This document shows, piece after piece, positions 1 through 20,155 of a stretch of 64,000 nt of DNA. Numbering within the stretch: position 1 is the stretch's first letter; each line of letters opens with the position of its first letter. The notes beneath the pieces are model-generated. The model had not been told where the DNA came from and ran no database searches. It saw nothing but the letters and a program-made list of their open reading frames with translations. The position numbers and the translations under genes were made by a program. Source of the stretch: Candidatus Woesearchaeota archaeon. Its GTDB lineage: Archaea; Nanobdellota; Nanobdellia; Woesearchaeales; JAZDKJ01. The stretch covers positions 51,814-115,813 of the forward strand of contig JAZDKJ010000013.1 in the NCBI GenBank assembly GCA_043803105.1. The letters are read 5' to 3'.

Positions 1-602
1 TTTTGTGTGAATTCAAGGACCTTGGTACCTTCCACCTTTACTGTTCCCTTCTCAGAAGGCCTGTTTGAGGTTGTCAGCATTATCGTGGTTATGGCATTGT
101 GCTTCAGATGGTCATTCCAGAGCTCATCAACGTTGATCTTGTCAAAGACCACGTCACCGTAGACGACCAAAAAGCTTGAGTTAATCCTCCCGCGTAGCGC
201 GCGAAGAGATGCAGCAGTGCCGAGAGATTTTTTCTCTTCAACATAATTCACACGAACTCCGTACTCTGTGCCATCCTTGAGAAGATTAAACACATTTGTG
301 AGGACATCATGGCGCGCCACCACATAGACTGTCTTGAAGCCGTTGTCGCGCATCTTCTTTACAGCTCGCTCGATCACAGAATGGCCTTTAAGCATAGCAG
401 TTACCCTATAGGAGCCGTCGGACAATCTCAGCAGTCGCTCATCACCACCTGCCAAGACCACACCAGCCTTGTTCTCACCAAGAGAGATCCGCACCAGGTG
501 CTCAATTGCCTGGCTCCTGTTCCTGATATATATGTTGTCAATGATAGAATCAATATCTTTTAGGGTCTTCTCATTAATGGTAATGCTAATCTTGGCCTTC
601 AT
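1..602 (-). CDS. Ribbon-helix-helix / nucleotidyltransferase-like fusion protein (runs off the window start; not in ORF track)
   Basis: Hand translation from ATG at 602: MKAKISITINEKTLKDIDSIIDNIYIRNRSQAIEHLVRISLG (CopG/NikR-like RHH), then VVLAGGDERL...YVEEKKSLGTAASL...FLVVYGDVVFD (NTP-transferase fold). TATA TTTATATA lies 22 nt upstream. Confidence 0.85.
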   Translation of the reverse strand, partial: MKAKISITINEKTLKDIDSIIDNIYIRNRSQAIEHLVRISLGENKAGVVLAGGDERLLRLSDGSYRVTAMLKGHSVIERAVKKMRDNGFKTVYVVARHDVLTNVFNLLKDGTEYGVRVNYVEEKKSLGTAASLRALRGRINSSFLVVYGDVVFDKINVDELWNDHLKHNAITTIMLTTSNRPSEKGTVKVEGTKVLEFTQ

Positions 603-635
603 GAAAATGAGTGAAAAAGCCTAATATATAAACAT

Positions 636-664
636 ATCGGATAAAGTAGGATAAGAGTAAGATA
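636..664 (+). promoter_or_regulatory. Phased GTARGATA direct repeats between divergent TATA boxes (candidate RHH operator)
   Basis: ATCGGATA at 636, GTAGGATA at 646 and GTAAGATA at 657, between the minus-strand TATA (625-632) and the plus-strand TTTAAG (665-670). Confidence 0.55.
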
Positions 665-703
665 TTTAAGGAGACAGGCTATCCTTTGATGAAGGTGATA
701 CAG

Positions 704-1978
704 ATGAACATAAGCATATCAGGAACTGGCTATGTGGGACTGATACAGGGAGTAGGGCTTGCAAAGCTGGGGAACAAGGTGATGTGCGTTGACATCAACA
801 AGGAAAAGGTTGACGCGATCAATAACAAGAAAGCACCCATATATGAAAAAGGATTATCTGAGCTCATAACAAAACTGGTTCCAAAACAGTTGACTGCTAC
901 CACAAACCTGAAAAAGGCAGTCATGGAAAGCCAGGTAACATTCATCTGCGTAGGAACTCCATCATCAGTGCACGGAGAGATAAGGCTGCACGAAATGGAG
1001 AGAATATGCACAGACATAGGCAAAATTCTCAGGCAGAAAAAACAACCGCATGTGATAGTCGTCAAAAGCACTGTTGTACCGGGCACATGCGAGAAGGTAG
1101 TGATTCCAACACTGGAGAGGGCATCGAAAAAGAAATTTGGAAAGGACTTTGGTGTGGTTATGAATCCTGAATTCCTAAGGGAGGGGTCTGCAATCGAGGA
1201 CTTTTTTCACCCGGACAGGATAGTGCTCGGAAGCTCTGACCAGAAAGCGATCAACACAATCAAGAACCTCTACAAGTGGTTCAAGTGCCCAGTGCTCGAA
1301 ACACGTTTTGGGGAAGCAGAGATGATCAAGTACGCCTCGAATTCGCTTCTGGCAACCAAGATATCATTCATAAATGAGGTAGGCAACATATGCAAGCGGC
1401 TTGGAATAGACACGAACCAGGTTGCTGTAGGGGTGGGGTTGGATTATAGAATAGGCCCTCACTTCCTTAGGTCAGGGATAGGATTTGGGGGAAGTTGCTT
1501 TCCAAAGGATGTAGCAGCATTAGTGCACAAGTCGCTGGAGTTGGGATATCACCCACGAATAATGAGAGCAGCGCTCGATGTCAATAGGGACCAACCCTTA
1601 ACGTTCCTAGAGCTTGTGGAAGAAACACTAGGCACTATCAAAGGGAAAAAAATAGCACTGCTTGGATTGACTTTCAAGGCTGAGACAGACGATGTACGGG
1701 AGAGCCCGTCCCTAACCATAATCAAGGAGCTAATACTGCACCAGGCAGAGCTGTTCCTTTATGACCCAATGGGAATGCCTGCTGTAAAAACACTTTTCCC
1801 TCACTTAAACTATGCAGAAAGCGCACAAGAGGCAGTAAACAAGGCAGAGGTCATATGCATCCTGACAGAATGGCCTGAATTCTCCAAGGTAAACTATGGG
1901 ACCAAACAGGTAATCGATGGGAAAAATGTCTTTGAGAAAGCCAAAAGGCCGAAGAACTATCAAGGAATCTGCTGGTGA
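704..1978 (+). CDS. ugd: UDP-glucose 6-dehydrogenase
   Basis: GTGYVG Rossmann motif, ICVGTP, VKSTVVPG, NPEFLREG, GFGGSCFPKD, FKAETDDVRESP. GGTGA SD at 694-698 favours ATG 704 over the ORF start at 686. Confidence 0.95.
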   Translation: MNISISGTGYVGLIQGVGLAKLGNKVMCVDINKEKVDAINNKKAPIYEKGLSELITKLVPKQLTATTNLKKAVMESQVTFICVGTPSSVHGEIRLHEMERICTDIGKILRQKKQPHVIVVKSTVVPGTCEKVVIPTLERASKKKFGKDFGVVMNPEFLREGSAIEDFFHPDRIVLGSSDQKAINTIKNLYKWFKCPVLETRFGEAEMIKYASNSLLATKISFINEVGNICKRLGIDTNQVAVGVGLDYRIGPHFLRSGIGFGGSCFPKDVAALVHKSLELGYHPRIMRAALDVNRDQPLTFLELVEETLGTIKGKKIALLGLTFKAETDDVRESPSLTIIKELILHQAELFLYDPMGMPAVKTLFPHLNYAESAQEAVNKAEVICILTEWPEFSKVNYGTKQVIDGKNVFEKAKRPKNYQGICW

Positions 1979-3366
1979 ACATGCTCGACCTTAATTCATT
2001 AGAGAGCTACAAGGAGACAGTACTTACAGAACTAGAAAGACAACTCAAAGCATACTTCGGAAGCATAGAAAACCTCTCGATTGAGGAGATAAGGAAGAAA
2101 GTAGTCGAGATAAACACCTACCAAAATATTGGACACCTGAGGAACGCGGAAAACATCAAGGTGCTTGATGACAAGAACACAAGCGAAGCAGAAAAAACCA
2201 TATTAGCAGGAAGGTTTTTCACAGAACACACAGCTGCAGGAGAAGCGACAAGGCTAGGCCTCGGCACAAAATACCTGCTAAAACTAAATGAATTCAGCAT
2301 GCAAAAGATAAGAGCGCTCATCATCAATGAATACCTTGATAACAAACCTGGGAAAAGTGAGGAAGAAGCAGAACTGCAAGCACAAAGGCTTATGGAACTA
2401 ATTGACTTTGAGCCAAACGAACTTGAAGCCATGACTTTAGGCGAGAGGCACATGACCCAGATGGCCTTTGACTTGGTAAAACTCGCAAAAAAACACGGAA
2501 AGCCAGCTGCAGAAGTGCTAGCAAGGCAGAAAATTCTTATGGTGTTAAACGAACAAACTGCAAAAGAGATACTAGATAAATTTGAAAATCATAATTACTA
2601 TGGCTTTCTCAACAAGAATGTCCATTTCATGATCCAGCAAAGCTTCCACGGGATATCAATACAGCAAGGAAAGTTGTCTTATGATGAGGCAAGCCCAAAA
2701 AGATTACACAACCACGGGCAAATGCTGATGCAAAAATGTCATGAAGGCAGCATTTTCGTGCACGGAGAAGAAACAAGGGCTTTAACATTCAAGGAATACC
2801 TGAAAATGCTGCAAGAGATGGAGGATATGCTCTCTTACAATATTGAAGACATTGGTTATCTTGAGAATTCGATTGACCTTGCAAGCCTGCAAGCCAGCCT
2901 TGACCTTGGAAGGCTAGGCTACAACATGGTAATGGAGGTTGTAGCACAAAACCCATACAAACCGCAAAAAGGAGGGGCATGTTTTTTTGATGTCAAGCTA
3001 GGAAAAACAGTGATGGTGGAAACCAACAGGTTGGGGGATATCAAGTACGAGGACATAAAATATCTAAACAAGAACTTCAACCATTATCCTAATCCAGCAA
3101 ACTCTATCTTAGAATTGAAGAAGCAGGGTATTGACCTTCCATTTGAAATCAAAGGACAGCCTAACAACGAATACATCTACCCCTGTCCAATACAAGGGGA
3201 CCTCAACTTCAAAGTCAAAACTGCATTTGTCATGAGAAAGACACTGAAACCAATAGCTAACTTTAAAAGCCCCGCAACCCTACCAGCAACCATGAAAGCA
3301 ATGCAGATGCAGGACAACCAAGATGGGTTCCTTGATTTTCGGGACAGGTTGAGAGAGGGATTATGA
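1975..3366 (+). CDS. Divergent UDPGP/UAP-family (eukaryote-type) UTP-sugar-1-phosphate uridylyltransferase
   Basis: Motifs in the expected order: [36 protein letters not shown]...QKGG, VMVE, YLNKN. Overlaps ugd upstream and uxs downstream by 4 bp each. Confidence 0.6.
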
Positions 3367-4313
3367 AAGGCTGCGTGCTAATAACTGGCGGAGCAGGATT
3401 TCTGGGAAGCCATCTATGCGAACTAATGCTAAAAAAAGGGTATGAAGTAATATGCATGGACAACCTAATAACAGGAACACTCAAAAACATTGAGGGCTTC
3501 AAAAGCAACAAGAATTTCAGCTTTGTCAAACATGATGTTACTGAACACATCACTGTTGAAGGCGAAATTGAATACATCATGCATTTTGCCAGTCCTGCCT
3601 CGCCGATAGACTACCTGCAAATACCCATACAAACGCTGAAGGCTAATGCACTGGGGACACACAATGCGCTGGGGCTTGCCAAGGCAAAAAAAGCAAGGTT
3701 CCTCTTAGCATCAACCTCAGAGGTTTATGGAGACCCGCAAGTGCATCCACAACCAGAGAGCTATTGGGGGCATGTGAATCCAGTTGGGCCAAGAGGGTCC
3801 TACGATGAGAGCAAAAGATTCGCAGAGGCGCTAACGATGGCCTACCATAGGATACACAAGGTGGATACCCGAATAGTCAGGATATTCAATACTTACGGAC
3901 CACGAATGAGGCCAAATGACGGCAGGGCGATTCCAGCATTTATCAGCCAGGCCTTAAACAACGAACCCTTGACAGTATTTGGCGACGGACAACAGACCAG
4001 AAGCTTCTGCTTTGTGAGCGACCTCTTAGATGGCATTTTTAAGCTGCTGATGTCTGAGATAACAGATCCAGTCAACATTGGCAATCCTACTGAGATGACC
4101 TTAATTGAACTAGCAAAAAAAATAATAGAGCTAGCCAGGAGCAAGAGCACGATAATCCACAAAAGTCTCCCGGTCGATGACCCAAGGGTGAGGCAGCCTG
4201 ACATTACAAAGGCAAGAAAAGAGCTTGGCTGGGAGCCCAAGGTAAGCATAGAAGAAGGGCTGAAGATAACCTTGGACTATTTCAAGAATCTGAACAAACA
4301 GAATATTTTATAA
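3363..4313 (+). CDS. uxs: UDP-glucuronate decarboxylase (UDP-xylose synthase)
   Basis: [70 protein letters not shown]. Confidence 0.92.
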
Positions 4314-4337
4314 ATTCTTGGCAAGTCTTAAACAAGC

Positions 4338-5777
4338 ATGGACAATGCGAAGTCACTAGGCAGGGGGGCTCTCTACAATTTTGCTGCAAGAGCTGTACTT
4401 GTTCTTACAGGATATGCGACAGCAGCAGTGCTTGCAAGAAAACTAGGTCCTGAGCAATATGGCATATATGGGGTTGTCACTTCACTTGTTTTTGTTGTCA
4501 CAGTTGTATTAATGACAGGGATAGAACAGACAACATCAAAATTCATATCAGAAAAGCCAAAGGACGCAAAGGCAATAAGTTATCAAATGCTAAAGCTCCA
4601 GATAGGCATAGGAGTTGCGGCAACAATTGCTTACTTCCTGCTCTCAGAACCATTGGCAACAGTCCTAAATGATAAGAGTCTTGTGCCATACATCAGGTAT
4701 ACATCATTGCTGATTATTTTCCAATCACTCTTTTCAGTCTTCACAGGATATTTGAACGGGCTTAAAAAATTCAAGCAGCAATCGTTGCTTAACATCAGCT
4801 ATTCTGTGATAAAGGCAATACTTGTAATAGGTTTTGTGCTGGCTGGGTACTCAGTAGTTGGTGCTTTGGCCGGATTCGTACTTTCTACAGCCATAGGATT
4901 AGGCATCTCGTTTCTTCTTTTCTCACCTGGGAGACATGAGCCAGTAACAACAAACAAGAAAATACTTGGATTTGGAGTGCCGATAGTGCTTTTCAGCAGC
5001 ATAACAATACTACTGATGAACATAGACCTATTCTTTGTCAAGGCACTAAGCCAGGCAAGCCTCGCAAACAGGCTGTCAGGGCTTTACACAGCTGCGCTAC
5101 TTCTCTCGAGAGGGCCGTATTACATCGTTACTGCGATAACGATCACAATATTCCCATTGATATCAGAGTTTGCGTACAGAAAAAAACAAAAAGAATTGGA
5201 GAACTACACCAAGAAATCTCTTGATTACTTACTAATCGCAATAACTTTCATTGTTTTTATAGTTGCCTCAACATCATCAGATGTCATAAGACTGATTTAT
5301 GGAACTGATTATACAACAGCAGGCCCGGCATTAACAATATTGAGCTTTGGGGGAGGGCTTTTTGCAGTATTCCTGTTGTTGGCAACAATAATCTCCGCAA
5401 GCGGAAGACCTAAACACTCATTCCTAATAGGGGCAGGATGCCTGGCAGTAGATTTTGCGCTTAACATGGTGCTTGTGCCAAGATACCAATTGGTTGGGGC
5501 TGCGATAGCAAACACAACATCAATGCTCATAGCAGTTATAGCCGGAATCTACTACATCAAGAAAAAATTTGGAATAGCTGTAATAAGCAGGAGGTCAATA
5601 TTAACAATAATAACTGGGATAATAATCATGGGACTATCAATAGTACTGCCTTTTAGCGGGATTTTACTCATTCTGAAGTATACCTTCCTTGGAATTCTCT
5701 ATGCAGGAATCCTGTATGCCCTGAAAATATTGGATTCAAGAGACCTTGCCTTTGCCAAAAGAATCATCAAAAACTGA
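4338..5777 (+). CDS. Wzx/MOP-family flippase
   Basis: Multi-TM protein with LARKLGPEQYGIY, GLYTAA and LVPRYQLVGAAIA. TATA at 4307-4314. Confidence 0.9.
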   Translation: MDNAKSLGRGALYNFAARAVLVLTGYATAAVLARKLGPEQYGIYGVVTSLVFVVTVVLMTGIEQTTSKFISEKPKDAKAISYQMLKLQIGIGVAATIAYFLLSEPLATVLNDKSLVPYIRYTSLLIIFQSLFSVFTGYLNGLKKFKQQSLLNISYSVIKAILVIGFVLAGYSVVGALAGFVLSTAIGLGISFLLFSPGRHEPVTTNKKILGFGVPIVLFSSITILLMNIDLFFVKALSQASLANRLSGLYTAALLLSRGPYYIVTAITITIFPLISEFAYRKKQKELENYTKKSLDYLLIAITFIVFIVASTSSDVIRLIYGTDYTTAGPALTILSFGGGLFAVFLLLATIISASGRPKHSFLIGAGCLAVDFALNMVLVPRYQLVGAAIANTTSMLIAVIAGIYYIKKKFGIAVISRRSILTIITGIIIMGLSIVLPFSGILLILKYTFLGILYAGILYALKILDSRDLAFAKRIIKN

Positions 5778-6800
5778 ATCTATAACCTTTTCAGCCTGCT
5801 GCCTATCAAGGTTAAGTTTTTCTAAGATGGTATACCTATCAGGCCTTGTCTTTGGAGCATAAAGCAATGCCTTAACCAGCTCATCACGCGAAAAACCAAG
5901 TTCAGAGTAATGTGATGCAGCACCTATCCTTTGGTACAAAGACCTAAAGGTGGAAAGATCCAAGCTATGAAGCTTTGCAGAAACAAAAATGCCAATACCG
6001 ACCTGCTCGCCGTGCAGTGCGCGATTGGGATACAAAAAATCAAGTGAGTGACTTATCTCATGCTCAGCACCGCTGCATGGACGGCTTGAGCCAGCAATAG
6101 CCATTGCAACACCGCTAAGGACAAGGCCTCCGACAAGCTTTTCAAAAAACTCATCAGACAAAAACTCATGCTTGGTTGTATGAAGAAAATAATCTGCATA
6201 AATAGTTGAAAGGGAGGCAGCAATGCTGTCAAAAGTATCCTTGCCATCGTTAAATGCGAGCTTCCAATCCAGGACAGCAGTTATGTTTGACAAAAGGTCA
6301 CATAGCCCAGCGCGAATGTGCCTCAATGGAGCTTTACTTATGATGTCAAGGTCAGCTATCAAACCAATGGGCATCTTTGCAGTGAGACTTTGCGAATGAC
6401 CCTTGTCCATAATCACTGCAATGGGGGAGCAAATACCGTCATGTGCCGGCGAGGTGGGAAAACTCACAAAATCAACTGAAGAGCGTGCAGAAGCAAATTT
6501 TCCAACGTCGATAACGCGACCGCCACCCACTCCAATCACAAGGTCAATTGATAGTTCAGAAATCATTCCAGAGACCATATCAACTGTTGCCCTAGAATTG
6601 TCTGGTACCATGAAATCATAGGCACTGTCAAACTGAAGAGCAATTTCTTTTCCAGCAATCTTGAATGTGGTAGGGTCAGAAAGAACAAGAACATTTTCAA
6701 AGTGAAGATTATTAGTTGTGATGATTTCGGCAACCCGGGCTTTCAGGCCGTGGCCGACCAAAAAAAACCGCGGTATATTAACACTGCGCATGACTATCAC
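5736..6800 (-). CDS. sn-glycerol-1-phosphate dehydrogenase family (EgsA/Gtp1-like)
   Basis: GVGGGRVIDVGK, PTSPAHDGICSP, GSSRPCSGAEHEISH, LHGEQVG. Confidence 0.88.
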   Translation of the reverse strand: MIVMRSVNIPRFFLVGHGLKARVAEIITTNNLHFENVLVLSDPTTFKIAGKEIALQFDSAYDFMVPDNSRATVDMVSGMISELSIDLVIGVGGGRVIDVGKFASARSSVDFVSFPTSPAHDGICSPIAVIMDKGHSQSLTAKMPIGLIADLDIISKAPLRHIRAGLCDLLSNITAVLDWKLAFNDGKDTFDSIAASLSTIYADYFLHTTKHEFLSDEFFEKLVGGLVLSGVAMAIAGSSRPCSGAEHEISHSLDFLYPNRALHGEQVGIGIFVSAKLHSLDLSTFRSLYQRIGAASHYSELGFSRDELVKALLYAPKTRPDRYTILEKLNLDRQQAEKVIDSVFDDSFGKGKVS

Positions 6801-8296
6801 AGATGCGAGACCAGCTCACCAATCTCTCTTACTATCATGTCAGCCCTAATCTCTGATGACTCGTAATCAATCCTGCTTGTCTCACCAGTCTCTACGAGAA
6901 CTGAGAGCATCTTTGAATTCTCTGCAAGCTTGATGTCAGTGTACAGCCGGTCACCAATGACCACAGCATCGGAAAAACTGAGATTATGAGACTTCAGGAC
7001 AGGCTCAATAAAGGACTTATCAGGCTTGCCAAAGGTCTTGTCAGGAAGCCTTTTGGTTGTCAGCTCGATGAGCTTTATGAAAGCACCTATATCAGGGACT
7101 AGGCCTTCATCTGTTGGACACACGATGTCGATATGGGTGGCATAATATGGAAGCCCCTTGGCCACCAGAATGCAAAAAAGTTTCAATTGATCATAAGTTA
7201 ATTCGGTGCTCCAGCAAAGCACCAGGGCTTCAGGGCCTTTTGCAGTCACATCAAAACCCTGCGCCTTGAAATGGTCTTCTACACTACTGTTTGCAATAAG
7301 AAAAATCCCCTTCACCCCAGTTCCCTTAAGAAAACTGATCAGGCTGTCAGAGGAGACAAGAACCTGGTCTTGTGTTATGGGAAGCCCAATATCCTGGAAA
7401 CGCTTGGCATGCTCTGCTGCAGTCTTCGAAGAATTGTTTGTCATCACGTAAAAACTCTTGCCAGATTGCACGAGCTTTTCCAAAAATTCTTTGCTGCCCC
7501 TGATTGGCTTTTTTCCCAGAAGCAGAGTGCCGTCACCATCAATGAAAAAAATCTTCCTATCCTTCAACTCAGCGAAGTGCTCATTAAAGGCAGACTCTGC
7601 CTGCCGAAGGTCATCAAAATTATCGATCTCAACCCATTTTTCCTTGCCTATGGCACATGGAAAGGAAATGAGCTCATGGCGCTTGAAAAGATTCTGAAGC
7701 ATGACCTCAGTCCACTGATTTCTGTCTTTTTGAACCTCGATGATCTTGTGGAGCTCATTTTTTATTACGGCGAGATCATTGACCAAAAACTTGTAGACAT
7801 CGATAGAGCAGCCAAAGGCATCTTGCTTTGGGATCTTCTTTGAGATGTCCACAATGTGGTTATTGGTGTCTACCATCACCTTCATGGACTCATCAATGTA
7901 ATTGCCAACATCAACAGCAATGCACGATTTCTTTTCCAAGAGCATAGCTGAGATAATCTGTGGAGAGAAAACAACATCACCATTCATCAGAAAGATGTCC
8001 TGGTCAAGATAATCCTTGGCCAGATAAAGGGAATACATATTATTGGTAGAGGCATAATCCTTGTTCTCCACAAAAGTCAAACGCAAACCAGGATGATTTT
8101 TTATGCAATAGGATTCAATTTTGGCTGAATTAAAGCCAGTGCAGATGACAATGTCTTTGATATTGTTGGATTCAAGGCTTCTTAGGATGTAGTACAGGAT
8201 TGGTCTTCCGTTTACCTCGACCAAGGCTTTGGGCTTCTCAAGAGTAAGGGGCTTAAGCCTAGAGCCAACCCCAGCAGCCAAAACAATTGCCCTCAA
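6797..8296 (-). CDS. Fusion of a LicC/IPCT-type cytidylyltransferase and a HAD-IIA (NagD-like) hydrolase/phosphotransferase
   Basis: N-terminal half: LAAGVGSRLKPLT..KPKAL, NKDYASTNNMYSL, NGDVVF, WVEIDNFDDL. C-terminal half: IDGDGTL, TNNSSK, GKP, GDRLYTDI, TGE. Confidence 0.88.
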   Translation of the reverse strand: MRAIVLAAGVGSRLKPLTLEKPKALVEVNGRPILYYILRSLESNNIKDIVICTGFNSAKIESYCIKNHPGLRLTFVENKDYASTNNMYSLYLAKDYLDQDIFLMNGDVVFSPQIISAMLLEKKSCIAVDVGNYIDESMKVMVDTNNHIVDISKKIPKQDAFGCSIDVYKFLVNDLAVIKNELHKIIEVQKDRNQWTEVMLQNLFKRHELISFPCAIGKEKWVEIDNFDDLRQAESAFNEHFAELKDRKIFFIDGDGTLLLGKKPIRGSKEFLEKLVQSGKSFYVMTNNSSKTAAEHAKRFQDIGLPITQDQVLVSSDSLISFLKGTGVKGIFLIANSSVEDHFKAQGFDVTAKGPEALVLCWSTELTYDQLKLFCILVAKGLPYYATHIDIVCPTDEGLVPDIGAFIKLIELTTKRLPDKTFGKPDKSFIEPVLKSHNLSFSDAVVIGDRLYTDIKLAENSKMLSVLVETGETSRIDYESSEIRADMIVREIGELVSHL

Positions 8297-8312
8297 CTTG
8301 TCACCCCAAAAT

Positions 8313-9023
8313 TCATCTTTTTGCCGTCAGGCGCCAAAGACGATATGTGAAATAGCTAACGTATGCAAAATAAAACAGAAGCTGGTAGACCCCAACCAAG
8401 ATGAAAAAGATCAGCTTGTGGCCAAAGATGATGCCTACAGTAAGCAAAACATAAATGTTTGTTCTTGTGGGCACTGCCTGCTTGGCAAACCAAGATAACA
8501 CGCTCTTTTTTGAGAACATCATGAACTTGACCTGGTTTCCCTTGGTAATCGGCTTGAAGGTATCACTAAAATAGACAACATCATTTGTTGAGGTGATAAG
8601 CAGCTTGACAACGAGAATCCCTGCAGTGAGTATCAGGATGTAAGGCTCTTGATAACGATAAAAAATCCCAATACCATACCCGGCATAAACGAAAACATCG
8701 ACCCACTTGTCCGCGATAATGCCTTCAATCCACTCGCCAAGGACTGAAAAGCGATTAGTAAGCCTTGCAAGCGCACCGTCAAAATAATCAGCAAACAGGG
8801 CAAGCTGCATGACAATAGCACCGTAGCCGAAATGACCCCTGTACAACAGCAGGCCAGCAACAAGCCCAACAAAAATTCCTGCAACAGTAATCATGTTAGG
8901 AGTAATAAAGGTGTTCCTGATGAGATAAACAAAAGAGAAGCCGATGAATCTGTAAACCTGCTGAAGCAGTTGCAGTTCTTTCTTGTTAGTGATTGACTGC
9001 TTGACAAATTTCTTGAAACTCAT
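8313..9023 (-). CDS. CDP-alcohol phosphotransferase family membrane protein
   Basis: TPNMIT, then DYFDGALARLTNRFSVLGEWIEGIIAD (variant of the family motif). TATA at 9046-9053. Confidence 0.85.
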   Translation of the reverse strand: MSFKKFVKQSITNKKELQLLQQVYRFIGFSFVYLIRNTFITPNMITVAGIFVGLVAGLLLYRGHFGYGAIVMQLALFADYFDGALARLTNRFSVLGEWIEGIIADKWVDVFVYAGYGIGIFYRYQEPYILILTAGILVVKLLITSTNDVVYFSDTFKPITKGNQVKFMMFSKKSVLSWFAKQAVPTRTNIYVLLTVGIIFGHKLIFFILVGVYQLLFYFAYVSYFTYRLWRLTAKR

Positions 9024-9061
9024 ACTAAATCGTCTTTGGCAAATCTATTTAAAACTTTGGG

Positions 9062-10459
9062 TCAACCCTTCCTGAGGTGACGTAAAAGAGTCCAGCCCTT
9101 CTTTCCAACAGACATAACGAACGGCCGGGTCAACCTCGGCTTCCAAACTAGCCAGGCAAGATAACCCACAAAAGAACCAAATTCAACCCTCATAAGGTAC
9201 TTCATGACATACTCTTGGGCTAACTCAAAGGCATTTTGCCGTTCTTGCCTGCTGAAATCAGGGGTCTCAAAAATAGGCTTTGAATCCCACCTACTGGCAT
9301 TATTCAAGTAATTGTCGGGCGAGCCTAGCAGGTTAGCATTCTTTCTTATCCAGGAAAAAAGCTCAGTATTCGGATAGGGAACAGCGTTGTAGAACCTTAT
9401 CTCATCAAACGGGAGAGATAAGGCAAAATCCAAGGTCTTCCTGAAATTCATGAGGTTGTCTCCAGGCATTCCGATGATGAAGAAACCGCTAACATCCTTG
9501 ATTCCGACCTTCTTGGCCAACCGCACAGCATCTTCAGCCATCTTCACTGTAATGCCTTTTTTCATCTTATTCAAGATGCCTTGGTCTGCTGACTCAACAC
9601 CGAAAGCAATAAAGAAGCAGCCCGCGTTCTTCATCTTCCTCAATAAAACCTCATTTACCTTGTCAACCCTTATACCGTTCTTGAGGTCCCACTTTATCCT
9701 TAGCTTTCTTCTGAGTATCTCGTCACAGATGTTCTCTGCCCTTTTCATATCGTAAGTGAAGCAGTCATCAACAAAAGCAAAATAGCAGTAACCTTTCTTG
9801 TACCAGTATTCTATCTCATCAACAACATTTTTTGGGGAGCGTGCGCGGAATTTCATGCCCATGGTGAATCTCATGGTACAGTAGGTACAGGCGTAAGGGC
9901 AACCACGTGAAGTAACCATGGAAATCTTCTTATCCATATATTTATCTAGCTCAAATAGCTCGAATGCAGGAAAAGGAATCTCATCAAGGTTCTCGATCAA
10001 CGGCCTCGGCTTATTAGTGACTATTTTGTTCTTGTCCCTCCAAATCAAGCCTTTAATCTTTGAGCTTTTTTTACCGTTTGCAAGTTCCAGAAGAGTGAAC
10101 TCGCCTTCACCAAGGCAGGCATAATCAGCCAAGGTGTCCTCAAGTATCTTAGCGCCTATTGTGGATGGATGGGGACCACCAACAATCACTTTGTAACCAT
10201 GCCTCTTCACCTTGTTAACAAGCTTGTATATGTTGAGGAACTCCCTGCTGGTCATGGTAATCGCGACAAGGTCTGGCTTGAAGTCAGAAAGACGCTTGAA
10301 GAGGTCTTCGTCAGTATAGTCAAGGCGCATATCAAGCACCTTTACAGTATGGCCATTATGTAGGAGAGTGGATGCAAGATAAGCAGTACCGTTATGCGGG
10401 GAGCTGGGCTTGAGCAGCACATCACCCTTTGAATTTGGTACAACAAAAAAAACACGCAT
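9062..10459 (-). CDS. B12-binding radical SAM protein
   Basis: N-terminal cobalamin-binding domain (GGPHP, GEGE), SRGCPYACTYC, DDCF, GVESAD, FIIGMPG, PYPNT. Confidence 0.92.
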   Translation of the reverse strand: MRVFFVVPNSKGDVLLKPSSPHNGTAYLASTLLHNGHTVKVLDMRLDYTDEDLFKRLSDFKPDLVAITMTSREFLNIYKLVNKVKRHGYKVIVGGPHPSTIGAKILEDTLADYACLGEGEFTLLELANGKKSSKIKGLIWRDKNKIVTNKPRPLIENLDEIPFPAFELFELDKYMDKKISMVTSRGCPYACTYCTMRFTMGMKFRARSPKNVVDEIEYWYKKGYCYFAFVDDCFTYDMKRAENICDEILRRKLRIKWDLKNGIRVDKVNEVLLRKMKNAGCFFIAFGVESADQGILNKMKKGITVKMAEDAVRLAKKVGIKDVSGFFIIGMPGDNLMNFRKTLDFALSLPFDEIRFYNAVPYPNTELFSWIRKNANLLGSPDNYLNNASRWDSKPIFETPDFSRQERQNAFELAQEYVMKYLMRVEFGSFVGYLAWLVWKPRLTRPFVMSVGKKGWTLLRHLRKG

Positions 10460-10494
10460 CTTTTGACAAAACCTCTGAAGTTATTTAAACATTA

Positions 10495-11223
10495 CTAACA
10501 GGTCTGCGACCAACCCGAAAGATTGGAGACAAGACCATAGAGCAGGCCCTTCTTGGCCAATTGAGGAAAGATGTCACGTTCAAGAGAACCAACCTTTTGC
10601 AGGTGCTGAAAAATGGCAGGTTCAAAAAGGTAGATGGCTGCATTAATCAAACCGGTCTTGGTCTTACCCTTATACTCAAAGGAAATAACCCTGTCACATT
10701 CAAAGACAATGTTGTCTGTGGACTTGTCAAGGTCAACTGAGGTCAGGCACATGGTAGCGGTGCTGCATTTCTCCCTATGAAAGGAGAGCATCTTTGAGAG
10801 GTCAAAGTCAAACCTAATATCACCGGATACCACAAGAAATGTGGTTGTAAAATCTTTTTCCAGAGACTTTATCGCACCTGCATTGCCCAAGAGTTTCTCC
10901 TCATTAAGGTAGCTTAACCTGATGCCACGATAAGAAGAGCCAAGCATTGCAAAGACATCACTATTATGCGTTGCTGCGGCAATGACAACCTCATGGACTG
11001 ACTGCTCGAGAAGCTTGTCAAGGTAGTGCCTGAGCACCTTCTCGTCAATCAATGTAGCCTTTCCCAAGAGAATCACTGCTTTAGAAATGGAGCCCTTGGC
11101 GAAGTATTCACGCAAAACCTTTTCGAACGCCTGACTCCTGTTCCTCACGAGAGAGGAGTCAACGAGACCATCAGCAAGCTTGAGCAGGTTGCTGCTGATC
11201 GAGATTGAAATCTTATCCTGCAT
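10495..11223 (-). CDS. Ribbon-helix-helix / degenerate nucleotidyltransferase fusion (paralog of 1..602)
   Basis: MQDKISISISSNLLKLADGLVDSSLVRNRSQAFEKVLREYF (RHH), then EEKLLGNAGAI, FLVVSGD, INAAIYLFEP, SLERDIFPQLA. The GGxGxRL..PK signature is absent. Confidence 0.85.
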   Translation of the reverse strand: MQDKISISISSNLLKLADGLVDSSLVRNRSQAFEKVLREYFAKGSISKAVILLGKATLIDEKVLRHYLDKLLEQSVHEVVIAAATHNSDVFAMLGSSYRGIRLSYLNEEKLLGNAGAIKSLEKDFTTTFLVVSGDIRFDFDLSKMLSFHREKCSTATMCLTSVDLDKSTDNIVFECDRVISFEYKGKTKTGLINAAIYLFEPAIFQHLQKVGSLERDIFPQLAKKGLLYGLVSNLSGWSQTC

Positions 11224-14462: not shown

Positions 14463-14465
14463 CAC

Positions 14466-14494
14466 TTTCCTACTTTTTCTTACCAAGTAAGAAA
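14466..14494 (-). promoter_or_regulatory. GTARGAAA repeats (two direct, one inverted) over the predicted transcription start (candidate RHH operator)
   Basis: Plus strand reads TTTCCTAC (14466), TTTCTTAC (14476), caa, GTAAGAAA (14487). Lies between the TATA (14498-14505) and ATG 14462. Confidence 0.6.
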
Positions 14495-14569
14495 TAGTAT
14501 TTAAATCCTTCGGTTTTTGCAATTGTCTCATTTGCAAACTTTTTTATAGGCGTGGACAAACCCAAAAAG

Positions 14570-15667
14570 ATGAACATACCAGTAGCTAACGTGACAGTGG
14601 GTTCGGAAGAGGCGAAAGCTGTCAGTGATGTAGTAAATTCTGGATGGCTATCTATGGGTAAGATAGTCAAAGAATTCGAGGAATCCTTCTCAAAAAAAGT
14701 TAAGGCAAGGCATTCAATTGCTGTAAACAACGGAACAGCAGCACTTCACGTTGCACTCGCTGCTTTGGGGATAAAGGCCGGAGACGAGGTAATAATACCT
14801 TCACTCACCTTCATCTCAACGGCAAACGCGGTATTGTATCAAAACGCAAAGCCGGTATTAGTAGAGTGCGACCCAGAAACGTATAATATCACAGCAGAAA
14901 TCATCGAGAGTGCGATAACAAAAAAAACCAGGGCAATAATCCCGGTAGACATGAATGGAATGCCGTGCGACTATGACCAAATCATAGAAGTGGCAGAAAG
15001 GCATGGCATACCTTTGGTGTGGGACAGCGCAGAAAGCCTGGGCGCAATGTACAAAAACAGGGATGTTGGCTCTATAGCAGACATACACATTTTCAGCTTT
15101 TTCCCGAACAAGAATGTCACAACAGGAGAGGGTGGAATGATTTGTACAAGGGATGACAAACTCAACGAAAAAATTAGGGTGCTAAGAAATCAAGGGCAGG
15201 ACTACAGGTATCACCACATAGAAATCGGGTTCAACTACAGGATGACTGAAGTTGCTGCAGCTATAGGAATAGAGCAGTTAAAAAAACTGGACAAAACAGT
15301 GGAAGACAAGCAAAGGATTGCTGAAATTTATAACAAGGCCTTTGCCAAAACAAGGCTGGTACATGCCCCTTTTGTGCCTGATTACGTTAGCGCACATTCA
15401 TGGTATATGTACGCAATCAAGGTTGACAAAGACAGGGATGCGATTGTTGAAAAGCTAAAGCAAAAGGGAATAGACACAAGGCTTTCATTCCCGCCAATAC
15501 ACAGCCAGCTTATCTACATGAAAAAATATGGATTCAGAGAAGATAGCTTGCCTGTAACTTGGAGGGCCTGGAAACAGCTGATAGACATCCCAATCTGGCC
15601 GGGCCTGGATGCACAAAAACAAAAATACATTATCGAAACACTTCTTGAACAATGCGAAGAAAAATAG
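14570..15667 (+). CDS. DegT/DnrJ/EryC1/StrS PLP-dependent nucleotide-sugar aminotransferase
   Basis: NNGTAALH, GDEVIIPSLTFISTAN, DSAESLG, FSFFPNKNVTTGEGG, GFNYRM. Confidence 0.93.
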   Translation: MNIPVANVTVGSEEAKAVSDVVNSGWLSMGKIVKEFEESFSKKVKARHSIAVNNGTAALHVALAALGIKAGDEVIIPSLTFISTANAVLYQNAKPVLVECDPETYNITAEIIESAITKKTRAIIPVDMNGMPCDYDQIIEVAERHGIPLVWDSAESLGAMYKNRDVGSIADIHIFSFFPNKNVTTGEGGMICTRDDKLNEKIRVLRNQGQDYRYHHIEIGFNYRMTEVAAAIGIEQLKKLDKTVEDKQRIAEIYNKAFAKTRLVHAPFVPDYVSAHSWYMYAIKVDKDRDAIVEKLKQKGIDTRLSFPPIHSQLIYMKKYGFREDSLPVTWRAWKQLIDIPIWPGLDAQKQKYIIETLLEQCEEK

Positions 15668-16791
15668 CAGTAATAGGACCTGTTTATCCATTGCGCGGAG
15701 GCATTGCGCACTCGAATACACTATTGTGCGAGAACCTAAGCAATGGGCATGATTTGTATGCAGTATCATTCAAGAGGCTGTATCCAGAGTTCTTGTATCC
15801 TGGGAAGAGCCAGAAATATGAATCAAAGAGGCAACTGGGCTTTGAACCAGACTTTTGCATAGACTCATTAAACCCATTCAACTGGATAAAAACGTTCAAT
15901 CGGATCAGAAAATTCAAGCCACAACTGGTAATATTGCAGTGGTGGACACCATTCTTTGCACCATTATCATACACTATACTTGTGTTGACAAGATGGTTCA
16001 CAAACGCGAAGAGCTGCATCATCTGCGCAAACGTAACACAACACGAAGACAAATTAGTGGACAAAATGCTCACAATGATAGTGTTTAGGCGGGCTGACTA
16101 CTTTATAACGTTAGCAGATGGCGACTTGAAGAAACTTAAAAAATGGTATCCTAAAGCAAAGGCAAGGGTGCTAATCGAACCAACCTTTGACTCAATATTC
16201 AACTTAGGGGCAGTCAGCAAGGAGGCTGCGCAAAAAAAGCTGAAACTTGCAAAGAGAACAATACTCTTCTTCGGGTTTGTAAGAGAATACAAGGGACTGG
16301 ATTATCTGCTTGAAGCAATGCCACTAATAAACACAGAGCTGGACGTTGACCTGGTCATCGCTGGCGAGTTCTGGAATGACAAGCAAAAGTATCTTGATAA
16401 GATAAGCACACTGAAAATCAAGGACAAAGTGAAGATTTTTGACAACTATATCCCAGATGAGGAAGTGGGATTATATTTTAGCGCTGCAGACATGGTCATA
16501 TTACCTTACCTGGATGCATCGCAATCAGGCATAATGCAAATAGCGATAGGCGCGCTAAAACCTACTGTCACGACAAACGTGGGCGCGATAGATGACTTTG
16601 TGGACCATGGGAAGACCGGATATGTAATCCCTCCGAAAGACCCTCAGGCAATTGCAAAAGCAGTGCTAAGGTTCTACAAAGAAAAGAAAGAGAAAAAATT
16701 TGAGCAGAACATACGACAAAAAAAGAAAATGTTCGAGTGGAGCAAGAAAAAGGAGTCGATACTGTTTTTTGGGCTAAATGGCAAGAATTAA
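15652..16791 (+). CDS. Glycosyltransferase family 4
   Basis: PLRGGIA, FFGFVREYKG, LPYLDASQSG, TNVGA. Confidence 0.9.
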   Translation: MRRKIAVIGPVYPLRGGIAHSNTLLCENLSNGHDLYAVSFKRLYPEFLYPGKSQKYESKRQLGFEPDFCIDSLNPFNWIKTFNRIRKFKPQLVILQWWTPFFAPLSYTILVLTRWFTNAKSCIICANVTQHEDKLVDKMLTMIVFRRADYFITLADGDLKKLKKWYPKAKARVLIEPTFDSIFNLGAVSKEAAQKKLKLAKRTILFFGFVREYKGLDYLLEAMPLINTELDVDLVIAGEFWNDKQKYLDKISTLKIKDKVKIFDNYIPDEEVGLYFSAADMVILPYLDASQSGIMQIAIGALKPTVTTNVGAIDDFVDHGKTGYVIPPKDPQAIAKAVLRFYKEKKEKKFEQNIRQKKKMFEWSKKKESILFFGLNGKN

Positions 16792-18109
16792 TCTAATAAA
16801 TTGTGATTGGAAAAGCTACACAGGAAAGTCAAGACTAAATGTCAATCCTTTCCAACCGCTAGAATTATGTTATCTTTCCGCAATATTGAGAAAAGAGGGT
16901 TATCAAACCAAAATAACTGACCTAAACCTTGAGCCTAGCAAGGAAATCACAGAAGCAGAATACTATATCATTACAAGCTCGCCAGCATATGTCTTCTGGA
17001 GATGCGCTCCCTTGACTGTGCAAGTGCCTTTAACAACAGCGCAGAGAATAAAAAAACTCTACCCCAAGTCAAGGACTGTTTTGATAGGGCCGCATGGAAG
17101 CGTAGATGATACACTTATCAAAAACAAACATATTGATGCCGTAATCAGGGGAGAACCAGAGTTCATCTGTTCAAAGGTGCTTAAAAAAATGGGAGCTGGC
17201 AAGATAATTTCTGAAATCGGGATAGTGGAAAGGCTTGACGAGCTTCCTTTCCCGGACTATGATAAGAAGACGATGCACAAATACTCTGCCTTTAATTTCC
17301 CTGGAAAAGGAAGGCCACGAATGCCGGTGCTGTACGAAACATCAAGGGGCTGCCCTTACAATTGCACATACTGCTTCAAAACAAAATTTCGCAACAAGTA
17401 CAGGAGAAAATCTGCGAACAAAATCGTAAAGGAACTGGCACGGCTACAAAATGAGTACGGAGTTGACTACGTATTTTTCATCGACGAGAATGCAACAGCC
17501 AATATTAAGGAAGCAAAGGCACTGATGAGGCAAATCATTGACAGAAAGCTGAAGATAAAATGGTCTTGCGAAACGGGGCTAATGTACGTGGACAAGGAAC
17601 TCCTCAAGTTAATGCAAAAGGCAGGATGCACCGGGATAGAGTATGGTGTTGAATCAGGGTCAGAGATAATACTTAAGAATCTAAACAAGCCGCAGAACCT
17701 GGACATCGCAGCAAGAAACATACAATTGACTATAGAAGCTGGAATCAAGCCATGGCTTTTTTTCATTGTGGGAAGCCCTGGCGAGAACTTTTCGACCATA
17801 ATGGAGAGCGTGAGATTCTTAAGAAGGATAGACCTAAGCAAGGTGCGCTTCTCAGCAGATGTGCCATACCCATACCCAACAACCAAATTGTATGAAACAG
17901 CAGTCCTGGAAGGAAAGGCAAGCAGTAACAAGATAGACTGGGAATCAATGCTTGAAATAGCAGGAACTGTCGGCAATAAGCTAAGCAAGGCAAGGGTCAG
18001 AATGTACAAGGTGCTTTTCCTAGCTTTCCTTGCTGCCAGCACACCAGGGTGGTCAATACCTTATGTATTAAGGAGCCCAATCAAGATAGCCAAGAGAGTG
18101 TTTGGCTAA
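16778..18109 (+). CDS. B12-binding radical SAM protein
   Basis: PLELCYLSAIL, GPHG, GEPE, SRGCPYNCTYC, GVESGS, PYPTT. Confidence 0.88.
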   Translation: MARINLINCDWKSYTGKSRLNVNPFQPLELCYLSAILRKEGYQTKITDLNLEPSKEITEAEYYIITSSPAYVFWRCAPLTVQVPLTTAQRIKKLYPKSRTVLIGPHGSVDDTLIKNKHIDAVIRGEPEFICSKVLKKMGAGKIISEIGIVERLDELPFPDYDKKTMHKYSAFNFPGKGRPRMPVLYETSRGCPYNCTYCFKTKFRNKYRRKSANKIVKELARLQNEYGVDYVFFIDENATANIKEAKALMRQIIDRKLKIKWSCETGLMYVDKELLKLMQKAGCTGIEYGVESGSEIILKNLNKPQNLDIAARNIQLTIEAGIKPWLFFIVGSPGENFSTIMESVRFLRRIDLSKVRFSADVPYPYPTTKLYETAVLEGKASSNKIDWESMLEIAGTVGNKLSKARVRMYKVLFLAFLAASTPGWSIPYVLRSPIKIAKRVFG

Positions 18110-18142
18110 GGCTTAAATAACCCGACAAATACTCTCGAGCAC

Positions 18143-19141
18143 ATGAAAATATCCAATTACACAAACAGCCTTAAATCAATGGCATTAGCTAGGCTCGGTA
18201 AAAAGACTCCAATAAAGGTCATACACTACATAACCAGCAGCTGCAACCTGCACTGCGGATTCTGCCTTGCTGAAGAGCTTAAGCGCGAACACGACCTTAC
18301 CACTATAGAAATAAAGAGATGCATGAATGAGTTCAAGGCTGCAGGCACACAGGTGTGGGACTTTGAGGGGGGAGAACCTCTGCTAAGACGGGACATCGAT
18401 GAGATAATCGAGCATGCCTGCAAGTTGGGATTTGTAGTCACGATCACAACAAATGGAATCCTGGTGGATAAACACATAAAGGCACTCAGAAAAGCAGACT
18501 TCATTAACATAAGCGTAGACGGACCAAGAGAAATACACAACAAGATAAGGGGTGCAAACTGCTTTGACACCATCATCAAGAACATTGATGAACTGGTCAA
18601 TAATGGAATCAGGCCGACAATAAACATGGTGGTGTGCAAGGAAAACCTAAGGGAGATGGACTACATGGTCAAACTCGCGATAGAGCACAAATGCAAAATA
18701 GACTTCTCGCTAGTTGTGGCAAACCTAGAGCACATAGAACCTTACACACTGACAAAGGAAGAAGTTGAAAAAGCTGTACGAAAGATCCTTGAATTAAAGG
18801 CTAAGCATCCAAAGACAGTCAACTGTTCTCCGTCTTATCTAAGAAGGATTGTGAAGTATTATAACAGGGAAATAAAGAGATTCATCCCAAAATGCCTTGC
18901 AGGAACAGCGTTCTGCTCAATCTCGCCATCAGGCGAGGTCGCGCTGTGCGTCGAGAGGCTCAAGGAAAGCATAAACGGAAGAAAAATTGGCTACAACAAG
19001 GCATTCCAGAAACTCAAGAATCCTGGATGCGACTGCACATGGAGATGCTTCTATAACTTAAGCCAAATGTACTCGCTAAAGCCTTTAACCCTGGTCAGGG
19101 TTGGCTACAACACCTTAAGGGGAAGATGGGTGCACAGCTAA
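18143..19141 (+). CDS. Radical SAM protein with Cys-rich C-terminal (SPASM/twitch-like) domain
   Basis: CNLHCGFC, GGEPLL, TTNG, ISVDG; C-terminal CLAG..CSISPSGEVALC..CDCTWRC. TATA at 18112-18119. Confidence 0.88.
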   Translation: MKISNYTNSLKSMALARLGKKTPIKVIHYITSSCNLHCGFCLAEELKREHDLTTIEIKRCMNEFKAAGTQVWDFEGGEPLLRRDIDEIIEHACKLGFVVTITTNGILVDKHIKALRKADFINISVDGPREIHNKIRGANCFDTIIKNIDELVNNGIRPTINMVVCKENLREMDYMVKLAIEHKCKIDFSLVVANLEHIEPYTLTKEEVEKAVRKILELKAKHPKTVNCSPSYLRRIVKYYNREIKRFIPKCLAGTAFCSISPSGEVALCVERLKESINGRKIGYNKAFQKLKNPGCDCTWRCFYNLSQMYSLKPLTLVRVGYNTLRGRWVHS

Positions 19142-20023: not shown

Positions 20024-20155
20024 TGTCAAGAGAATAAAGGCAGGGCGTTTAAATAGGTTTTGCTTGCTTTTGCAAAACATAAAGGGCGAACAGGCGCGTG
20101 CAGCACTTGAAGCGATGCCTTTATAAAAGCATCAATTTTCTGTATACAAGGGAAA

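Follow-up and report, generated by a model that had tools for sequence, protein, structure and literature searches.

The stretch of DNA analyzed here, which we call the window, comprises 64,000 nucleotides (G000:C13:51814-115813) of a 1.56-Mb genome in 13 contigs; close protein relatives of the window genes are labelled Woesearchaeota, Nanoarchaeia or Nanoarchaeota. The window contains two minus-strand genes, A and B, in which a ribbon-helix-helix (RHH) head is fused to a body with the fold of sugar-1-phosphate nucleotidyltransferases. A whole-genome search adds a third paralog, C, on another contig (L002:1501-2337, contig C2; 278 amino acids), which has the same N-terminal motif and a body with fully intact enzyme motifs. 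Gene A (3..602) is cut by the left edge of the window, with 200 of its 266 codons inside; the whole gene (L001:1300-2100, minus strand) encodes 266 amino acids. Gene B (10495..11223) encodes 242 amino acids. A is divergent from ugd, a gene for UDP-glucose 6-dehydrogenase, and B ends the operon of a second dehydrogenase. These contexts are as given in a preliminary description of the window, which had also taken the two genes for sensors of nucleotide-sugars that control transcription; both open reading frames (ORFs) exist, and both match PF00483 and RHH profiles. We propose that A, B and C are most likely switches for cell-surface sugar synthesis.

The head of A occupies 468..602 on the minus strand (residues 1-45) and consists of a beta-strand (KISITI), a first helix and the residues RNRSQAIE, which open the second helix. 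The head of B (11089-11223, minus strand) has a strand, KISISI, that resembles A's. The order strand-helix-helix is as expected of an RHH domain, and a linker of approximately 4 residues connects head and body. Single sequences match RHH_1 (PF01402) weakly (E-values: A, 0.16; B, 0.022; C, 6.5e-4), and A and B on their own fall below the Pfam cut-off. The NikR models give E-values of 3.5e-4 and 4e-3, far under their cut-offs and over residues 4-46 alone. A profile built from the first 48 codons of 56 family members aligns over its full length with the RHH domain of Escherichia coli NikR (E-value 7.8e-6, residues 3-47 against 2-46). Its other matches in the PDB are the Rv0298 antitoxin (1.2e-3), the NikR of Pyrococcus horikoshii (1.6e-3), CopG (8e-3, two entries), CcdA and HicB3, and each of the seven matches with an E-value of at most 1 is to a DNA binder of the RHH or an RHH-like type. 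Of the 56 heads, 31 match RHH_1 on their own with an E-value of at most 0.01 (best 5.9e-7). The end-to-end alignment with NikR, the RHH character of every PDB match and these 31 individual matches together indicate that the N-terminal head of A, B and C is a real RHH domain.

Structure prediction agrees with this assignment. An AlphaFold2 (AF2) model of the head of A alone (residues 1-48) has a predicted local distance difference test (pLDDT) score of 87.4, with an extended segment at residues 1-10 and helices at 11-20 and 29-42. In the full-length monomer of A the head scores below 50; it is confident only when modelled alone with a deeper alignment. A Foldseek search with the isolated head returns Helicobacter pylori NikR first (TM-score 0.66), and ParD and SvtR are found with TM-scores of 0.65-0.71. 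A homodimer prediction of A scores 0.21 against a mark of 0.42 and counts neither way on dimerization. Across 26 orthologs of A the head is nearly invariant.

The body of A within the window (3..467, minus strand) covers residues 46-200 of 266, the rest lying beyond the left edge, and has a degraded G-loop. It belongs to the NTP_transferase family: PF00483 matches A over residues 47-198 (E-value 2.6e-14) and B over residues 62-222 (2.2e-13), and a profile of the A family matches RmlA (3hl3) with an E-value of 9.7e-12. The AF2 model of A has a pLDDT of 78 overall and of 76-92 per 10-residue block over body residues 41-200. Its best structural relatives are GDP-mannose pyrophosphorylases (TM-score approximately 0.73), among them chains of the human GMPPA/GMPPB complex (7d72, 7d74); against VTC1 the Foldseek E-value is 2.6e-16. 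A toxin-antitoxin pair, with an RHH antitoxin and a nucleotidyltransferase toxin, is ruled out as an explanation, for the body has the PF00483 fold, the fusion is a single ORF and the genes lie inside glycan operons.

We compared motif states in 59 fusion genes from the fetched loci together with the genome's own three, dropping proteins shorter than 200 amino acids. The arginine of the G-loop is essential for catalysis in PF00483 enzymes. C-type proteins keep GGxGTRLxPxT..PK (GGEGTRL in C itself), LGTAG, NGDE, YGV and GQWFDTG. C looks like a working nucleoside diphosphate (NDP)-sugar pyrophosphorylase, probably for GDP-mannose. In A the G-loop reads GGDERLL. An alignment of 26 A orthologs (65-73% identity) shows that its GG is kept and that the column of the catalytic arginine is variable; this genome's A has leucine there in the HMMER alignment. 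In A types a near-invariant Tyr-Arg (Y65 R66) replaces Pro-Lys and an invariant His-Ile-His (HIH) replaces the Trp-Phe-Asp of WFDTG, the aspartate of WxDxG not being conserved. GG, GTA.S, YGD, QKP and SLE.DVFP are invariant in the 26 orthologs. A appears to be a decayed paralog: gone are the catalytic arginine and the second aspartate for metal binding, while most residues lining the pocket have been kept. In B, the alignment has a gap of 16 residues after ILLGK where the G-loop would be; the PK segment is deleted too, and the segment of the C-terminal aspartate motif is missing as well. The G-loop is also deleted in the clear ortholog of B (L056) and in two further lineages (L058, L062), and another lineage (L057, L059, L061, L064) has a different degenerate loop. 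The RHH head is retained in all of these motif-decayed lineages, including the loop-deleted ones.

The motifs quoted in the preliminary description are correct: A has LAGGDERLLRL and, at the position of PK, YR, and B has ILLGK, after which about 16 residues are deleted. The decay of the catalytic signature that it saw in both genes is, for A, a property of the whole family and not of this genome alone. Its picture of an RHH domain on a dead enzyme probably fits A and B; it fails as a general rule, since the C family keeps the RHH together with every catalytic motif. For the same reason it looks as though the RHH was joined onto a working enzyme and A and B are later decayed copies.

The family is large. 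A search with A gives 699 matches; among the best 120 of these, which include the query, the other 119 are 57-74% identical and nearly all approximately 265 amino acids long. In the protein search the C family is as deep as the A family. By hand count a fused C-type gene is present in about 64 of 201 sampled genomes; 382 fusion loci are confirmed among species-representative genomes, and 170 clusters at 50% identity match the family with an E-value of at most 1e-10. Among the best 80 of the 382 loci the label "uncultured Methanosarcinales archaeon" is frequent, and "Aminicenantes bacterium" and "Aenigmatarchaeota" occur once each; over the 82-residue junction, the proteins of these oddly labelled loci share 60-76% identity with the Woesearchaeota-type query, and the labels look like defaults or products of mis-binning. 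In a tree of the bodies (FastTree, midpoint-rooted, support values not weighed, with the fused gene L063 mislabelled as unfused), A, B, L058 and L062 form a group with long branches that is separate from the unfused and the C-type forms, and some unfused genes are nested among C-type genes. At present family members are annotated as nucleotidyltransferases or hypothetical proteins, which is probably wrong for the A and B types.

The region between A and ugd (704..1978, plus strand) contains an element of approximately 46 nt (623..669) that is near-invariant among genomes. At its left end lies a TATA-like box that serves A (623-632, approximately 26 nt from the A start codon), at its right end one that serves ugd (663-669, approximately 35 nt from the ugd start codon), and between them a core (633-662). 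These distances suggest that the transcripts of A and ugd have short leaders or none. Three phased repeats run through the element, GGATAA at 639-644, GGATAA at 649-654 and AGATAT at 660-665, with spacings of 10 and 11 bp. Each of the 20 A/ugd intergenic regions has the element, which over approximately 33 nt reaches about 2 bits per position. This non-coding element is under strong purifying selection, in a locus whose flanking proteins share only 52-64% identity. A scan of the window against Rfam at gathering thresholds gives no match, and thus no known RNA family accounts for it.

Synteny connects the element to A and ugd. In all 19 A-ortholog loci from other genomes, a gene of the Ugd family lies head-to-head with A. 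Compared with the two dehydrogenases of the window, the partner is nearer to Ugd than to the second one at 18 of these 19 loci, the other (L012, a short fragment at a contig edge) being a tie. Where extra DNA lies between A and the element (L010, L015-L017), the distance from element to ugd is preserved; where a gene has been inserted before ugd (L011, L012), the element stays beside A. The extra DNA in the first four loci consists of GC-rich palindromic insertions of 110-150 bp, which resemble small hairpin-forming repeats. The inserted gene in the other two is approximately 1 kb long and lies between the element, which precedes it, and ugd. The right half of the element, along with its TATA box, is present a second time in a convergent intergenic region of another genome (L167, G170:C11, approximately 1959-1990), ahead of a small ORF beginning MEAVIARYVAVEECPRCSS, a CxxC motif.

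A position weight matrix (PWM) built without the window copy finds one site in the 1.56-Mb genome, at 55.5 bits, and nothing else above 8; this search for a regulon thus yields no second A-element site in this genome. We also searched the 201 genomes for a 25-nt consensus of the element with at most 2 mismatches and for A orthologs with an E-value below 1e-75. The element occurs in 28 genomes, A in 28 and both in 27, and a reversed-pattern control gives 1 match over the same genomes. By coordinate comparison, element and A lie within approximately 210 nt of each other on the same contig in 26 of the 27 shared genomes. In one genome (G118) a contig end truncates the A gene; in another (G086) A is present with no element match; and in the genome with the element alone (G071) the match has 2 mismatches and lies inside a coding region. 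The constant divergent pairing with ugd (19/19) and the near-invariant repeat element between the two promoters strongly suggest the regulatory role that the preliminary description had assigned to A; the same claim for B fares less well, since B has no comparably conserved operator.

The start of ugd is listed as TTG at 686; ATG at 704 is likelier, as the alignments of homologs begin at residue 6-7 of the listed ORF. Its product matches the N-terminal, central and C-terminal UDPG_MGDP_dh domains of Pfam and AglM of NCBIfam (1.8e-137). Three plus-strand genes follow in the operon. The first (1975..3366), between ugd and the next gene, encodes 463 amino acids and matches no family in Pfam or NCBIfam. 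Its sole sequence match in the PDB is a eukaryote-type UDP-N-acetylglucosamine pyrophosphorylase (3oc9, E-value 0.12, residues 188-244), and it might be a very divergent UDP-sugar pyrophosphorylase, in which case A would be redundant as an enzyme. The second (3363..4313) is an NDP-sugar dehydratase or decarboxylase of the short-chain dehydrogenase/reductase (SDR) family (Pfam GDP_Man_Dehyd, Epimerase). NCBIfam models for dTDP-glucose dehydratase, ArnA and UDP-xylose synthase match it, all below their cut-offs; it is possibly a UDP-xylose synthase. The third (4338..5777) encodes a membrane protein resembling polysaccharide flippases (Pfam Polysacc_synt_3, Polysacc_synt, MurJ).

A different repeat marks the promoters of C-type genes. 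In the first 30 C-type upstream regions, direct repeats of ATCATAC are seen near the TATA box. An independent set of promoters was collected with a junction-spanning profile over named species-representative genomes, using the best 80 of the 382 confirmed loci; three with less than 130 nt of upstream sequence were dropped, leaving 77. TCATAC is present in 56 of these 77 promoters, against about 1.2 expected from a coding background, and is second only to the TATA hexamer (57). The distance at which 5-mers repeat themselves peaks at 10 bp (144 versus 13 in the control). In 31 of the 37 promoters where this was measured, 11-13 nt separate the end of the repeat pair from the TATA box, and the TATA box has a median start of -31 from the start codon. 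As a control we took 20 C-like genes without the head, two of which were dropped for want of a placeable start codon: TCATAC occurs in the 120 nt upstream of none of the remaining 18 unfused orthologs (0/18). Among these 18, two genes share 67% and 62% identity with C, more than do many of the fused genes with the motif. In this genome the strict form TCATAC-N4-TCATAC occurs four times, against about 0.6 expected from a scaled shuffle count, and two of the four are at C's own promoter. The extra pairs (contig C6, approximately 538192; contig C10, approximately 85964) each lie just upstream of a TATA-like box and may be further targets of the C-type protein.

The strand of the C-type head, R-V-T-x-T-L, aligns with QRVTITL of NikR, in which Arg3, Thr5 and Thr7 read bases. 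The operator of E. coli NikR is GTATGA-N16-TCATAC (PMC7055735) and the half-site consensus of enterobacterial NikR is ATCATAC (PMC545781). That the same strand goes with the same half-site is the best single argument that the heads would bind the ATCATAC repeats. No code relating beta-strand to half-site could be derived by eye across the subfamilies; L062 has the strand KIAISI and yet repeats like TATTAC/TCATAC. Downstream of C are two cupin genes resembling mannose-6-phosphate isomerase and then a phosphomannomutase gene, and a phosphomannomutase gene follows the C-type gene in 21 of 29 loci.

Gene B closes a co-directional minus-strand cluster that runs from the second NDP-sugar dehydrogenase (13134 to ATG at 14462; the listed ORF starts with TTG at 14537) through an SDR enzyme (12145-13134) and a TIM-barrel protein (11213-12148) to B, the ATG of which overlaps the stop of the TIM-barrel gene by 11 nt. 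The promoter region of this operon (14463..14551, minus strand) contains a box, TTTAAATA, followed by GTAAGA-N4-GTAGGA at 14468-14483, just upstream of the start codon. A TATA-like TTTAAATA also lies after B, ahead of the next gene on the same strand. The hexamers GTAAGA and GTAGGA match the cores of the repeats in the A element, and of the four GTARGA pairs in the genome, two are at the A/ugd promoter and the B-operon promoter; we treat GTAAGA-N4-GTAGGA as a lead only for a candidate B site. Three close relatives of B appear in the protein search and one clear ortholog among the 200 other sampled genomes, which also adjoins SDR genes. Around A and B lies an island (5736..10459, minus strand, and 14552..20080) that includes an Fe-dependent alcohol dehydrogenase resembling glycerol-1-phosphate dehydrogenase, a nucleotidyltransferase-HAD fusion, a CDP-alcohol phosphatidyltransferase, three B12-binding or other radical SAM enzymes, a DegT aminotransferase and glycosyltransferases. 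So unusual a combination of genes suggests a pathway for a modified or phospho-linked glycan.

The architecture, motif states, synteny, DNA elements and their distribution are observed; from them we infer that A, B and C bind DNA and sense a ligand, what that ligand is, and whether they repress or activate. For DNA binding the indirect case is strong. On balance we favor the view that the family consists of one-component transcription regulators of Woesearchaeota-type (DPANN) archaea, with a NikR-like head and a nucleotidyltransferase body, which would work as follows. The C type, found on contig C2 in this genome, would be the ancestral form, still resembling a pyrophosphorylase. It most likely binds the ATCATAC direct repeats 11-13 nt upstream of its own TATA box while still catalyzing, and would sense its ligand at its own promoter as A does. 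A would be a dedicated local regulator of its own gene and of the ugd operon (ugd, the 463-amino acid gene, the SDR enzyme and the flippase). RHH dimers of A would occupy the three phased GGATAA-like repeats between the divergent TATA boxes, and a nucleotide-sugar or nucleoside triphosphate (NTP) in the former active site would modulate their occupancy of the DNA; candidate ligands are UDP-glucuronic acid (UDP-GlcA), UDP-xylose (UDP-Xyl), UDP-glucose (UDP-Glc) and UTP. We suppose that A represses ugd and its own gene. This sign is a guess from archaeal promoter logic: the repeats overlap the region of the B recognition element (BRE) and TATA box of both promoters, which makes repression the likelier sign. 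B, with its G-loop deleted, probably has an analogous role at the second NDP-sugar dehydrogenase operon.

It is tempting to go further and to regard the whole family, including the intact C type, as pyrophosphorylases joined to a NikR-style DNA binder, that is, as "trigger enzymes" that read the pool of their own product and set transcription by it. This broader proposal is one we make tentatively, giving it somewhat less than even chances. If it is true, A, B and at least two further lineages represent successive stages on the way from an enzyme to a pure metabolite-sensing transcription factor, and in the family DPANN archaea have their first defined pairs of regulator and operator, with a predicted site for every pair.

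A number of observations weigh against reading the family as regulators. Binding of DNA and of ligand by A, B and C is itself a prediction, and another transcription factor could be the binder of the A or the C-type element. The isolated head obtains no significant E-value in Foldseek, the best being 1.2 for H. pylori NikR. For A, the co-occurrence with its element is largely the co-inheritance of one locus, related genomes not being independent, and part of the conservation of the element is that of ordinary promoter sequence (two TATA boxes and BREs). A keeps much of the pocket, and 16 of 20 A-type proteins have a lysine or arginine three residues after the canonical arginine position, which leaves room for residual or altered catalysis. 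The C-type motif is not universal: a strict TCATAC pair occurs in 21 of the 77 promoters and a relaxed pair in 38, while 21 have no TCATAC. The unfused controls are on average more distant relatives, and phylogeny confounds the contrast with them. One unfused gene (L151, G100:C9) has a relaxed ATCATA/ATCACA pair before its TATA box, and no separate RHH ORF is seen in its 1.5-kb locus; the gene may have lost its head recently, or a paralog may control it in trans. The two strict pairs of this genome that are not at C's promoter precede a 124-amino acid ORF and a seryl-tRNA synthetase-like gene. Finally, B is less well supported than A: it is rare (a single clear ortholog among the sampled genomes), it lacks a conserved operator, and GTARGA pairs are not enriched genome-wide (4 versus 1.9 +/- 1.5 expected).

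Several of these points would be accounted for if the RHH were a module for dimerization or oligomerization that does not bind DNA. A, B and C would then all be enzymes, A and B with altered chemistry or substrates, A would adjoin ugd as supplier or user of a nucleotide-sugar in the same pathway, and another factor would bind the elements. The C type keeps all catalytic motifs and is followed in 21 of 29 loci by a phosphomannomutase gene, as a pathway enzyme would be; the retained pocket residues of A and the nearby basic residue point the same way, as do the TCATAC pairs at two unrelated promoters, and metabolic partners cluster too. However, the head retains the residues that characterize RHH domains which bind DNA, DNA binders make up all of its closest matches, and in near-invariant form it persists in lineages from which the catalytic loop has been deleted. 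The C-type repeat, moreover, is the half-site of an RHH protein whose beta-strand matches, unfused orthologs do not have this repeat, and neither the catalytic arginine nor the metal-binding aspartate is conserved in A. We therefore consider this explanation unlikely.

The resemblance to GMPPA raises the question of whether A and B might act on proteins instead, binding an end product and allosterically inhibiting the C-type enzyme or the dehydrogenase, with the RHH serving for hetero-oligomerization. According to PMC11228364, GMPPA is a non-catalytic paralog of GMPPB that binds the product GDP-mannose and regulates GMPPB by feedback. The GMPPA/GMPPB complex is among the best structural matches of A, and A, B and C share a head type and coexist in one genome. 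On the other hand, A (266 amino acids) has no C-terminal left-handed beta-helix, which the eukaryotic proteins use in assembly, and the match is to the nucleotidyltransferase domain alone: the alignments span 227-248 columns of targets 359-407 residues long, and a Pfam search of A finds no hexapeptide repeats. Inhibition of a partner protein would also leave unexplained both the near-invariant repeat element tied to A and the pairing of A with ugd rather than with a nucleotidyltransferase gene. To us it seems a shade less probable than the enzymes just discussed. Least probable of all, with only a slim chance of being right, is that the A/ugd element has no dedicated regulator and is a bidirectional core promoter (two TATA boxes, BREs and initiators) under unusual constraint, the RHH of A having its target elsewhere: both ends are TATA-like and about the right distance from the start codons, and promoter elements are conserved in AT-rich archaeal intergenic regions, but ATAAAGTAGGATAA, the part that varies least, is flanked by the two boxes, a place at which the general factors do not require any particular sequence, a genome with hundreds of promoters has the full element a single time, the element is restricted to genomes that encode A, and it has an internal periodicity of 10-11 bp.

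If A, B and C are regulators, as we favor, their interest lies partly in the organisms that carry them. DPANN archaea have not been cultured, their genomes are tiny, and the cell surface is where they depend on their hosts; to our knowledge, almost nothing is known of their gene regulation. The family is widespread in one major DPANN group and would control, or is at least tied to, the synthesis of surface-glycan precursors of the UDP-glucuronate, UDP-xylose and GDP-mannose types. Since the proposal names a regulator, a predicted site at base-pair resolution and a few candidate ligands, it can be tested with purified proteins and short DNA, without culturing. The intact and decayed paralogs together offer a natural series for the change from enzyme to sensor. 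The preliminary description knew of no characterized regulator with this architecture, and we likewise found no description of an RHH/nucleotidyltransferase fusion in the literature searched, which misses most subscription journals; as one-component regulators with an enzyme-derived sensor, A, B and C are most likely undescribed so far. We regard the preliminary interpretation as supported in part, and extend it to a family with an intact enzyme.

Comparison with known systems places the family between several of them. With the PF00483 enzymes RmlA, GMPPB/VTC1 and HddC it shares the fold and most pocket motifs, and the C type matches them fully. Unlike these enzymes, A and B have neither the G-loop arginine nor the C-terminal metal-binding aspartate motif, B is without the whole loop, and A, B and C all carry the extra RHH head. 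A and B have the fold of GMPPA and appear, like it, to have lost catalysis; according to the source cited above, GMPPA keeps the binding of its nucleotide-sugar product, a precedent for a decayed copy of this fold serving as a product sensor. In domain composition the two cases are reversed: GMPPA acts on a partner protein, has a C-terminal beta-helix and no DNA-binding domain, while A and B have the DNA-binding type of head and no beta-helix.

Among regulators, the ROK family (NagC/Mlc), RpiR-SIS and MocR are bacterial repressors with enzyme-like sensor domains, and they resemble our proposal in joining a DNA-binding domain to a metabolite sensor derived from a sugar enzyme. Their heads, however, are of the helix-turn-helix type, their sensors have kinase, isomerase or aminotransferase folds, and they are bacterial; we know of none that uses an RHH with a nucleotidyltransferase fold. 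NikR (1q5v, 2hzv, 2bj1) is the best match of the head (E-value 7.8e-6, as above) and has the same layout, with an N-terminal RHH joined directly to a C-terminal oligomerizing, ligand-binding domain. The RVT.TL strand of the C type equals that of NikR, and its predicted half-site, ATCATAC, equals the enterobacterial one. The differences are in the body, a nucleotidyltransferase fold where NikR has an ACT-like tetramerization domain with a high-affinity nickel site; in the predicted A and C sites, which are direct repeats 10-11 bp apart where the NikR operator is an inverted repeat with a 16-bp separation; and in the proposed ligand, a nucleotide or nucleotide-sugar where that of NikR is a metal. 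With the nickel-binding domain missing, A, B and C are not members of the NikR family. A functional parallel to the C type may be PutA, a "trigger enzyme" in which an RHH is fused to proline-catabolic enzymes; BirA and NadR are likewise DNA-binding enzymes. In PutA, as apparently in the C type, a DNA-binding head sits on a competent metabolic enzyme and regulates its own pathway. Enzyme family and pathway are different, the homology is limited to the RHH, and in the family described here catalysis has decayed in some paralogs (A, B and others).

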